A DNA stretch of 14,340 nucleotides. Origin: a virus. Lineage: Duplodnaviria > Heunggongvirae > Uroviricota > Caudoviricetes. Position numbers: made by a program. The stretch is from the IMG/VR virus record IMGVR_UViG_2579778884_000008; one strand, given 5' to 3'. Of the stretch, positions 1 through 3,000 are shown in pieces. Each line of letters starts with the position of its first letter. Within the stretch, counting starts at the first letter, position 1.

Positions 1-3000
1 CTATGCTGTTTTGATATCTACGATAATCCAGTCTTTACCACGATCATCATTGTATCGGTCGGTCATTTTTCTGGATTTATGGCCTAACAACTTTTGCGTA
101 TCCAGACCCTGTTCCCGATATAACCGTTCTGACAGAGATCGCTGCTCATGAAATGTGGGCGCAGTTCCTTGCTCCCATTTTATGCCACATTTTTCCCGGG
201 CCTTTTTAAAAGCCGTTGTCAGAGTATTTGCAGAAACCTGGTCTCCTCTGTTTGCTTGAGAGGTAGTGTGACGGTAATGGACCAGATATTTACTAACAAC
301 AGCATCCCTGCACTGAGATATAACTTCACGAAGGGTAATATTCAGAGCATCGCATTTCAGGTTAAGCGGAATAGCAAGTTTTGAACCGGTTTTTTCCTGA
401 GTAATGTGCAACATGTCGTCCCATATATCAGAGAATTTCAAATTGCAGATATCGCCTAAACGTTGTCCAGTAACAAGAGCAAGTAGCATGCCGCATTTTA
501 AATAGGGCTGCCGTCTGCTTACGCTGTCAAATATTGCCTGCCATTCGGGCAGTGACAATCTTTGGCGGTTTACTCGATTTCGCGGTTGTTTTGTTGCCTG
601 CGCTGGGTTAAATCCTGGCGGAACATGTCCTGCGTGTTGTGCTTCTTTGAAGACGTCGATCAACACCATTCTCACGACTTGCGCCATCCTGTTATGACCT
701 TCAGCCTTTACAGCATCAATTATTTCGGCAATATCAAGTGCGGTAATATCCTTGAGGTGTTGCATTCCACAATGCTCACGGAAAAGACGAATGGGTTTGC
801 CTTTTTGCCGATAGGAGTTGGGTCTTAGTTCATTATGTTGCAGCCTGTCCTCTTGGATAGAAATATATTTATCAAGCCATTCTGTCACCGTAATGTCTGA
901 GCGCCTGCCTTTCATTCTTTCCAGACGCTCATTGACGCTTAATATTTGTCTGGTACGTTGTTCAGCAATAATGGTATTTGCTTCAGTAGCAACTTGTTTT
1001 GCTTCATTCTCATCAGTTCCTAAGCTATGAAAACGACCGGATAGTGGATGTTTGTATTGCCAATATACCTTTCCGGTTCGCTTATCTAATTTGCAATATA
1101 AATTGGGTATAGAGATTTTGTGAGATCGGGGTCTAGCAGCCATCAGCGATTATCCTTTGGAGTTTTGGGTTTGCGTTTATTGGGAGTTGCGGTTCTGCAA
1201 GCGTTCCTACAAAACGGGAATTTCGGTCAATCATCCAGTAGCGACCAACTTTTATAGCGGGTGGGGCCATCATTTTCCCTTGCGCGTATTTTTTCAGAAC
1301 TCGCTCACTTGGTGCTAAGTCCCCAAATTCTTCTTTAGCCCAGTCCTGTAAAGTGATTAGTCGAGACATTTGTCCTCCTCTTAGCTGCTGAGGGAGTTTG
1401 TGACCGATATATCTGACATGATATTAAGCTCATGGCAGGTACATCTCTTGACTGGTCATAGAGATAAATTTAATGCTGAGAAATGCAGTATTGAATTTAT
1501 CAATTTTTCTATTTCCTGCGCATGTCACGTAACTTCTTAATGTGTTCTGCCGTTTCGATCTCTTCTGCTATCCGATCTGCATCAGCTTTATTCACAGGTT
1601 CAAAGTCATGATTAAAGCGGAACATGCTGGCGATACATGTTCTGCCTTTTCGGATGTAGTGAACTTTGTTGTGGGTAGAACGCAGGATTTTGCAGGGAGT
1701 GCCGTGGTGGTCGACGTACCAGGTGTTAGGGTCAATCACTCTGAACATTCTTGACCTTGTGTTGTGCGGATTGATATTCAGTGCTGATATTCACCTTTAT
1801 AGCGAACACCTTTACCGGTTTATCGCCAAAGTGCGGATGTGTGATTGTCTTCACTTCATATCCGTCATACGGAACATCAATTCTGCGACTGGAATCGTCG
1901 CGCTTCGGATATCCCTTTGTGATAATCAGGCGGTCATATTCCCGGAACATAATTCGCTTATTCCAGTAGTCATTACACAAGCGATACTCTTCCGTTTTCT
2001 CTCCGCGAATCATGGCATCGAAGTATTCACTTTTAACAGCAAGTTGCAGGTTAGCCATCACTTAATCCCCCTTTGTTTGCGGATAAGCTCCAGATCTTGC
2101 TGGCAACTGGCGCAAGTCCGACAACCCTGAACGGCCAGGCGTCTTCGTTCATCTATCGGATCGCCACACTCACAACAATGAGTGGCAGATACAGCCAGGT
2201 AGTTCAGGCGGCGCATTTTTATTGCTGTGTTGCGCTGTAATTCTTCTATTTCTGATGCTGAATCAATGATGTCTGCCATCTTTCATTAATCCCTGAACTG
2301 TTGGTTAATACGCTTGAGGGTGAATGCGAACAATAAAAAAGGAGCCTGTAGCTCCCTGATAATTTTGCTTTTCATGTTCATCGTTCCTTAAAGACGCCGT
2401 TTAACATGCCGATTGCCAGGCTTAAATGAGTCGGTGTGAATCCCTTCAGCGTTACCGTTTCGCGGTGCTTCTTCAGTACGCTACGGCAAATGTCATTGAC
2501 GTTTTTATCCGGAAACTGCTGTCTGACTTTTTTGATTTCAGAATTAGCCTGACGGGCAATGCTGCGAAGGGCATTTTCTTGCTGAGGTGTCACTGAACAA
2601 GCCCCATGTCGGCAAGCATAAGCACACAGAATATGAAGCCCGCTGCCAGAAAAATGCATTCAGTGGTTGTCATACCTGGTCTCTCTCATCTGCTTCTGCT
2701 TTCGCCACCATCATTTCCAGCTTTTGTGAAAGGGATGTGGCTAACGTATGAAATTCTTCGTCTGTTTCTGCTGGTATTGGCACAAACCTGACTCCAATTT
2801 GAGCAAGGCTATGTGCCAAATCAATACTCGTTCTTAACTCAACAGGAGATGCTTTGTGCATACCGCCCCCCGTTTATTATTTATCTCCTCAGCCAGCCGC
2901 TGGGCTTTCAGCGGATTTCGGATAACAGAAAGACCGTGAAATACCCAGCCTCGCTTTGTAACGGAGTAGACGAAAGTGATCGCGCCTACCCGGATATTAT

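Follow-up and report, generated by a model that had tools for sequence, protein, structure and literature searches.

Small genes between exo and xis in a probable phage-21-like lambdoid prophage, with ASCH and DUF4222 genes in the variable distal part

Between the Red gene exo and the excisionase gene xis of a tailed-phage sequence (Caudoviricetes; IMG/VR record IMGVR_UViG_2579778884_000008) lies a tightly packed group of small genes, among them genes for a TraR/DksA-type zinc-finger protein, an ASCH-like protein and a DUF4222 protein. The locus raises the question whether these genes form a distinct accessory module, in which the TraR-type and ASCH-like proteins act as a pair on the host, or belong to a region already known from other lambdoid phages. 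Here we analysed the whole stretch of 14,340 nt, referred to as the window. Positions 1509-3022 very probably represent an exo-xis region, with a conserved proximal part and a variable distal part, in a lambdoid prophage that resembles phage 21 and resides beside icd. The block is already annotated and largely described; phage 21 has it, as do hundreds of E. coli prophages.

All genes within positions 1-4800 are encoded on the minus strand, in the order gam-bet-exo-orf60a-orf63-orf61-orf73-ASCH-DUF4222-xis-int (Table 1). When the window was compared with phage genomes by blastn, positions 1-4859 showed 99.2% nucleotide identity with phage ev207 and 97.5% with phage 21, and positions 2068-4859 showed 96.6% identity with lambda. 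Comparison of the records of the three phages revealed the same genes annotated there, and the Xis protein was 100% identical in amino acid sequence to Xis of phage 21 and of ev207. The products of orf60a, orf63, orf61 and orf73 were 98%, 89%, about 94% and 90% identical, respectively, to those of lambda. Since the lambda identity extends from 2068 onwards, lambda encodes the same TraR-type protein; the lambda record NC_001416 leaves Orf73 unannotated, and lambda also has the same sequences for orf61 and for two very small open reading frames (ORFs), orf27 and orf31. The original prediction had described the content of the module as different from that of lambda. This was correct for the ASCH and DUF4222 genes, which make up its only non-lambda part (1509-2067), but not for the TraR gene and the small ORFs. 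Matches of 100% were obtained in E. coli chromosomes, where they directly adjoin icd and are labelled in RefSeq as DUF4222, ASCH, TraR/DksA, a 71-residue hypothetical protein, DUF1382 and DUF1317. Among complete E. coli genomes, 3655 of 5426 matched part of the query and 736 matched at least 80% of it.

The exo-xis region has been described as a conserved series, orf60a-orf63-orf61-orf73-ea22, followed by variable genes and transcribed early from pL (PMC8614690, PMC4195576). In its gene order from orf60a to orf73 the window conforms to this arrangement, and the view that the early-left operon has an accessory slot here, with changing gene content, was borne out. No Pfam match to Ead_Ea22 was detected in this region of the window, where the ASCH gene directly follows orf73; lambda Ea22, used as a control, did match PF13935. 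Among the three protein families named originally, DUF4222 (PF13973, 68.5 bits against a cut-off of 27, E=3.6e-19) and the TraR/DksA zinc finger of RNA polymerase (RNAP)-binding type (PF01258, 36.0 bits against 24.9, E=6.7e-9) were recovered above their Pfam cut-offs, while ASCH (PF04266) remained below it (14.3 bits against 21.2, E=0.068, over 23 residues, 7-29). No NCBIfam model matched the ASCH, DUF4222, orf61, orf63 or orf60a products, and Rfam models, applied at gathering thresholds to the complete window, gave no match. In four E. coli records (NZ_CP095520, NZ_CP013658, NZ_CP195483 and NZ_OZ040267), an otherwise identical region is split by ISEc52, an IS3-family element; one of these records annotates ASCH twice, which suggests insertion in or near the ASCH gene.

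Table 1. Coordinates of genes and other features in the window.
Feature	Position	Strand	Basis
int	1-1143	minus	
xis, phage-21 type excisionase, downstream module boundary	1133-1369	minus	Pfam Exc PF07825, E=6.7e-6
Spacer between DUF4222 gene and xis, 139 nt	1370-1508	minus	junction reading
DUF4222 gene, 79 aa, last before xis	1509-1748	minus	PF13973
ASCH-like gene, 108 aa	1732-2058	minus	fold and motif
orf73, TraR-family zinc finger, 73 aa	2058-2279	minus	PF01258, phrog_54
Mosaic joint, end of lambda homology at 2068	2060-2075		blastn against lambda
orf31, 31-codon ORF in orf61-orf73 spacer	2286-2381	minus	ORF reading
Terminator-like hairpin with U-rich tail	2329-2357	minus	terminator scan
orf61 core, 71 aa, GTG at 2593	2378-2593	minus	phrog_303, E=2e-39
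orf61, longer open reading, 93 aa, ATG at 2659	2378-2659	minus	
orf27, 27-codon hydrophobic ORF	2590-2673	minus	ORF reading
orf63 homologue (DUF1382)	2670-2861	minus	Pfam PF07131, E=9.1e-29
orf60a homologue (DUF1317), first gene of conserved exo-xis block	2834-3022	minus	Pfam PF07026, E=8.5e-39
exo (bet and gam beyond)	3013-3693	minus	
kil	about 4853-5059		
Terminator-like hairpin after repressor gene	5533-5516	minus	
S24-peptidase repressor gene	5655-6410		
YdaS/YdaT-type immunity region	6449-7288		
Inverse autotransporter adhesin, 1421 aa	9252-13517	plus	IAT_beta and Big_1/invasin repeats
Alpha/beta-hydrolase gene	13554-13982	minus	

The ORFs of the module and the junctions quoted for them were all present at their places on the minus strand: TGATG between the TraR and ASCH genes, a 17-nt overlap between ASCH and DUF4222, ATGA at orf63/orf27 and at orf61/orf31, and GTGA between orf27 and the orf61 core. 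These overlaps had been noted as a feature of the module. The same style is seen through the whole operon, with ATGA at bet/exo and overlaps of 10 nt at exo/orf60a, 28 nt at orf60a/orf63 and 11 nt at xis/int, and overlaps are therefore no mark of this module. The 17-nt overlap arose from loss of the ASCH stop codon. GAA TAA, the ending normal for the family, reads GAA TAT in the window, extending the ORF by 14 codons into the DUF4222 gene. TAT was found in 21 of 26 related loci and TAA was retained in the other 5; the resulting 14-residue tail was modelled with low confidence. The short overlaps are compatible with translational coupling.

The orf73 product keeps the sequence features of TraR. 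Its N-terminus, D3-I-I-D6-S-A8, is a DxxDxA motif that aligns with D3, D6 and A8 of TraR, and its zinc finger reads C35-x2-C38-x17-C56-x2-C59, with cysteines C36 and C53 also present. An ExxRL motif (E44-x-x-R47-L48) was read from the sequence, R46 and R47 aligned with TraR R48 and R49 in phmmer, and the protein aligned over its full length with the F-plasmid TraR chains of the RNAP complexes 5w1s and 6n57. In TraR, the DxxDxA motif reaches the RNAP active-site region, and R48 and R49 are tied to the rim helices and to beta' Si3. With the NCBIfam model TIGR02419 (C4_traR_proteo), the product scored 55.1 bits, below the cut-off of 59.7; at the sequence level this near miss is outweighed by the Pfam match and by the identity to lambda Orf73. 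The roles of the residues equivalent to R48 and R49 of TraR have been described (PMC9239242). Lambda Orf73 was shown by experiment to bind RNAP, to alter initiation in the absence of ppGpp, to inhibit rRNA and ribosomal-protein promoters and to slow host growth, and it raises phage yield and burst size 3-4-fold in a D3- and D6-dependent manner, D3A and D6A abolishing function (PMC9239242). From the 90% identity it is safe to infer that Orf73 of the window would bind RNAP and control promoters in a TraR-like manner. Codon changes among related loci, counted at positions 1/2/3, were 15/6/35 for orf73, 22/17/74 for the ASCH core and 8/6/18 for the DUF4222 gene, a third-position excess which shows that the three are real genes and under purifying selection.

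The ASCH ORF encodes a stand-alone protein and comprises a 94-residue core and the 14-residue read-through tail. The protein was predicted to adopt a PUA-like beta-barrel fold, and it carries a GxKxxExR-type signature, G19-E-K21-T-E-E24-Y-R26. G19, K21, E24 and R26 were invariant in 33 close relatives; among 45 distant relatives K21 was again invariant and G19, E24 and R26 were each retained in at least 90%, the signature being kept down to 36% identity. This signature, placed after the first helix, was reportedly described by Iyer et al. in 2006. Weak Pfam ASCH matches were obtained with 18 of 45 diverse relatives (best E=0.003). ASCH membership is supported at the level of the modelled fold, together with the motif, and the original ASCH-like assignment stands on these two features, though not on the sub-threshold Pfam score. 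A 'conservative octapeptide' is mentioned in PMC9599836. The family corresponds to phrog_625, annotated as of unknown function, and, with E values up to 0.001 admitted and clustering at 50% identity, yielded 1242 clusters; most members stand alone and are 90-130 residues long. Among the examples examined, members occurred mainly in phages and prophages, and also in Salmonella, Ralstonia and phage genomes of 270-470 kb. When two profiles of the family were searched against solved structures, only chance-level matches were returned (beta-xylosidase, ribosomal protein L15).

The DUF4222 protein, of the family phrog_285, was modelled as a five-stranded small barrel with a long C-terminal helix (mean predicted local distance difference test score 89), and structural matches of the model were limited to generic SH3/Tudor-like folds. 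The DUF4222 gene adjoins xis in each lambdoid lineage examined, with both types of xis, the phage-21 type and a helix-turn-helix (HTH) type; the latter stands beside DUF4222 in Shigella phage 75/02 Stx, in Klebsiella phage ST101-KPC2phi6.1 and in one further locus (L020). We considered whether DUF4222 could itself be the excisionase in 75/02 Stx and ST101-KPC2phi6.1, where xis is unannotated, but rejected this because each of the two has an HTH-type xis ORF between DUF4222 and int. These unannotated excisionase ORFs are located at 3694-4158 of L091 and 2753-3088 of L092 (phages 75/02 Stx and ST101-KPC2phi6.1). In phage 75/02 Stx, no annotated gene other than DUF4222 separates exo from the unannotated xis ORF.

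The conserved proximal part contains orf60a, orf63 and orf61. For lambda Orf63, an NMR structure and a pro-lytic phenotype are known (PMC10869804). In the case of orf61, the codon changes identify the 71-residue part as the coding one, with 12 synonymous against 6 non-synonymous changes, and 2 and 15 in the other two frames. Among the matches listed, most distant homologues (28-45% identity; Klebsiella, Yersinia, Vibrio, Enterobacter) aligned only from residue 15-23 of the 93-residue reading, one Klebsiella match aligning already from residue 7, and these homologues are annotated as proteins of 72-74 residues. From the codon-change bias and from the alignment starts and lengths of the homologues, the conserved orf61 gene is therefore the 71-residue core. 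PGAP calls this form, and the codon at 2593 is GTG in the window and ev207 and ATG in lambda and phage 21. Independent frameshifts have occurred in lambda (a 1-nt insertion at about 2533) and in the ev207 group (a 4-nt deletion at 2507-2510); the window, phage 21 and Shiga toxin (Stx) phages keep an intact orf61. Published models of the orf61 product are said to suggest a homeodomain-like three-helix fold. The frameshift accounts for the truncated, unstructured appearance of lambda "Orf61" (PMC8614690). A further locus carries an in-frame 12-nt deletion at 2393-2404 in orf61. The product of 2378-2659 also gave a weak, sub-threshold ZapA match (E=0.0077), which explains the label 'cell division protein ZapA' in some phage records. 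Small genes between exo and xis appear to be often damaged or mis-called. In one related locus the equivalent of window position 2759 carries a premature stop in orf63 (GAA to TAA), and the RefSeq annotations of ev207 and phage 4A7 shorten the DUF1382 coding sequence to 38 residues.

A terminator-like hairpin lies within orf31, at 2357-2339, and reads AGGGAGCU-ACA-GGCUCCUU, followed by the U-rich tail UUUUAUUGUU. Its folding energy was -10 to -11 kcal/mol (z=-2.3), and it was invariant across 14 of 14 distinct sequences. The hairpin was at one stage considered as lambda tL3, and this assignment was dropped as the sequence matches a published predicted terminator, t2, instead. In lambda and phi24B, t2 lies between orf61 and orf73 and overlaps a predicted promoter, p1 (PMC4195576, Table 4 therein), and it has been invoked for the lower mRNA levels of orf73, ea22 and ea8.5 (PMC4195576). 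A further published prediction for lambda and phi24B, terminator t1 (GGCTGGG-TATTT-CCCGGCC), has the counterpart GGCTGGG-TATTT-CACGGTC at about 2930-2975 of the window, within orf60a, where the changes weaken the stem.

The proposal that the TraR-type and ASCH proteins are a co-evolved pair which reprograms host transcription and RNA metabolism, with their overlap reflecting coupling, draws on the TGATG junction of the two genes in the window, on the same adjacency in phage 21 and ev207, and on the thought that both proteins could in principle act on RNA synthesis or on RNA. We examined the 80 closest ASCH loci in IMG/VR, with flanks of up to 4 kb, and searched for TraR by hidden Markov model. 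A TraR-like ORF was present in the flanks of only 27 loci and absent from 53, and TraR was the immediate upstream gene in 22. Upstream neighbours of ASCH fell into six unrelated families, including a DUF551 protein (26 loci), TraR (22), a 134-residue protein of unknown function (22) and a Lar-like protein (6), and downstream neighbours fell into nine. Phages 4A7 and 1H12 carry TraR directly followed by DUF4222 without ASCH, lambda has Orf73 without ASCH, and Stx2 phage II has the order TraR-Ea22-...-DUF551-ASCH-x-xis, in which Ea22 and other genes separate TraR from ASCH by about 2.4 kb. The occurrence of ASCH homologues in Salmonella, Ralstonia and the 270-470 kb phage genomes also speaks against a dedicated pair, as does the mosaic joint at 2068, which falls exactly between the two genes: it lies within the final codons of orf73, some 10 nt upstream of where ASCH starts. 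TraR and ASCH are thus not conserved as a unit across related prophages, and their coordinated pairing, as originally suggested, is extremely improbable. In most contexts the ASCH cassette carries its own linker and Shine-Dalgarno sequence, gcaggaggttaacc, and because this linker is conserved some upstream proteins share the C-terminal tail ...QEVNRG. The linker precedes ASCH behind several unrelated genes (six loci) and resembles boundary sequences at lambdoid mosaic joints. Adjacencies better conserved than TraR-ASCH are those of orf61 with TraR, seen also in two Klebsiella phages, and of DUF4222 with xis. ASCH is a freely shuffled cassette, and ASCH and DUF4222 are independent of each other.

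A role of ASCH or DUF4222, or of both, in anti-defence or superinfection exclusion, for example as a PUA-like modified-base reader that shields phage nucleic acid or blocks modification-dependent nucleases, is likewise unlikely. In relatives the variable slot does hold genes of anti-restriction type: the gene directly upstream of ASCH encodes a Lar-like protein in 6 loci, and Klebsiella and Yersinia phages have DNA methyltransferases in this region. The ASCH cassette has also spread over very different phage types; but with all genes of the region shuffled, such neighbourhoods amount to guilt by association. Among ten longer ASCH-family members, the only fusions were an Ea22-ASCH read-through and sub-threshold noise, with no nuclease or effector partner. 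PADLOC gave no match for any of the eight products, a result of little weight as its library covers defence systems and has no anti-defence models. Even less probable is that the ASCH protein is an N4-acetylcytidine (ac4C) amidohydrolase of the YqfB type, serving nucleotide salvage or ac4C erasure during infection. The catalytic residues of YqfB are Lys21, Thr24, (Arg26) and Glu74 (PMC9599836). The window protein has K21 and R26, but the position of the Thr24 nucleophile is occupied by Glu, which argues against this activity. The correspondence itself rests on inspection and on the fold, since the ASCH profile matched the YqfB sequence at E=0.47 with the motif region and Glu74 unaligned. The distal slot as a whole might be imagined as a set of small RNAP-directed proteins, in which DUF4222, like RgdR of the same family, would be a Tudor/SH3-like domain that binds the beta lobe alongside the secondary-channel binder Orf73. 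The C-terminal domain of UvrD/PcrA and the RNAP interaction domains of CarD and Mfd bind the beta lobe and would be the analogues, and lambda orf55 has reportedly been modelled as a T7 Gp2-like RNAP modulator. Such a set would explain why RgdR alters expression of LEE, the enterocyte effacement locus, and of flagellar genes yet binds DNA non-specifically, why DUF4222 shares the last position before xis with lambda orf55, and why DUF4222 comes straight after TraR in several lineages; we nevertheless regard it as very unlikely. Equally unlikely, and separate from it, is the idea that ASCH is a phage protein which reads a modified base. It is rather doubtful that orf31 and orf27 are genuine micro-protein genes, as their chained ATGA/GTGA junctions might suggest. 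Both ORFs start inside stop/start overlaps behind plausible Shine-Dalgarno sequences. The orf27 product, MTTTECIFLAAGFIFCVLMLADMGLVQ, is hydrophobic, resembles a transmembrane helix and is 100% identical in lambda, phage 21 and ev207, and the annotators of phage 21 placed a 29-residue 'putative secreted protein' at the position of orf31. However, orf31 lacks third-position bias (3/3/3), shows 3 synonymous against 6 non-synonymous changes and is filled by the conserved terminator. Near-identity of the DNA accounts for orf27 being conserved, its ATG start reads ATA in one lineage, and the test of its frame against that of the orf61 N-terminal extension gave 2 synonymous and 3 non-synonymous changes in each frame, from few substitutions. 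Neither ORF matched a protein family (Pfam, PHROG, NCBIfam) and neither is annotated by PGAP. The one or two small ORFs noted originally do exist, but the 31-codon one, orf31, has no coding signal and is probably not a gene.

If the block is an exo-xis region with a conserved proximal and a variable distal part, its genes would be carried on an early leftward transcript, at the distal end of the operon between the Red genes and xis/int, with the small genes translationally coupled; early pL transcription is known in lambda and phi24B (PMC4195576, PMC9239242). By homology, Orf73, the only product of the proximal part whose mechanism is understood, would bind RNAP directly and shut down promoters for rRNA and ribosomal proteins; it would also make the host grow more slowly and increase phage yield. 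Terminator t2 would probably lower expression of orf73 and of the genes after it, and it may matter more in the window prophage because no N homologue lies between kil and the repressor gene. The ASCH product would be a binder of nucleic acid or of a modified nucleoside. The DUF4222 protein would act as a small regulator of host gene expression, in analogy to RgdR (ECs1581) of enterohaemorrhagic E. coli (EHEC) O157:H7, the characterised member of the family, which activates LEE1 and represses motility (PMC3378721, PMC10877973). Regulation of host transcription has been demonstrated only for RgdR and C1493, and the RGD tripeptide at residues 20-22 of RgdR is functionally important (PMC3378721). 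The RgdR sequence, taken from the Sakai genome, matched PF13973 with 82 bits (E=2.1e-23) and has the same domain as the window protein.

Several observations weigh against this picture. No N, cIII or ea10 was recognised between kil and the repressor gene (5060-5655), and an early-left promoter was looked for and none was located, the immunity region being of YdaS/YdaT type. RgdR and the window DUF4222 protein share about 28% identity over 46 aligned residues, with an hhalign probability of 13%, and the RGD motif is absent from the window protein, where P7-N8-T9 stands opposite it (G21-D22 against N8-T9 in hhalign). RgdR is a protein of 99 residues whose gene lies upstream of a primase gene, within a P4-like element, rather than beside xis, and because of this context the transfer of its function is weak. 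LEE would be absent from most hosts of the window prophage.

The spacer between DUF4222 and xis contains an A+T-rich inverted repeat with a 16-bp stem (1463-1501). The spacer RNA folded at -32 kcal/mol (z=-2.5 against shuffles), and the repeat might serve the integration/excision module by binding a protein. The adhesin and hydrolase genes look like cargo; they are flanked by replication gene P on one side and by the nin region (ybcN, ninE, rusA, Q) on the other. In the best phage records, coverage of the window reaches only about 64%.

ASCH and DUF4222 are distinct cassettes, both mobile, at the variable end between exo and xis, a part left undiscussed in the cited exo-xis literature. The analysis further adds that the orf61 core is a 71-residue gene with an ATG start in lambda and with independent frameshifts in lambda and ev207, and that DUF4222, the family to which RgdR, a virulence regulator of EHEC, belongs, stands beside xis in each lambdoid lineage examined. 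If ASCH or DUF4222 acts on RNAP or on modified nucleic acids, this would add to the reprogramming of the host by small proteins of temperate phages.

Among known systems, the solved members of the ASCH superfamily (YqfB, the ZmASCH ribonuclease, PH0355 and the EF ASC-1 homologue 3iuw) have no detectable sequence similarity to the window protein, which forms a family of its own, phrog_625, with respect to them. RgdR and the window DUF4222 protein are both small, basic and prophage-encoded. F-plasmid TraR has the DxxDxA motif, the CxxC-17-CxxC finger, the arginine pair and the C-terminal helix in common with Orf73 of the window, at a distant similarity (E about 1e-4). Lambda Orf73 shares with it the two extra cysteines and differs by seven substitutions, clustered C-terminally past the mosaic joint, where lambda reads ...LISKQRGS and the window ...LIRKQRGIK. 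The exo-xis regions of lambda and Stx phages have the same exo-to-xis position, leftward strand, packing and short overlaps as the window. In lambda, however, the distal slot holds ea22, ea8.5 and orf55 where the window has ASCH and DUF4222, and the immunity region is also different. The closest relatives are phage 21 (OL657228) and ev207 (NC_049949) of the genus Jouyvirus. The window prophage differs from them in its immunity genes and in the cargo adhesin further right, but shares with both the gene order int-xis-DUF4222-ASCH-TraR-orf61-orf63-orf60a-exo-bet-gam and the attachment beside icd, and its DUF4222 protein is 89% identical to that of phage 21.

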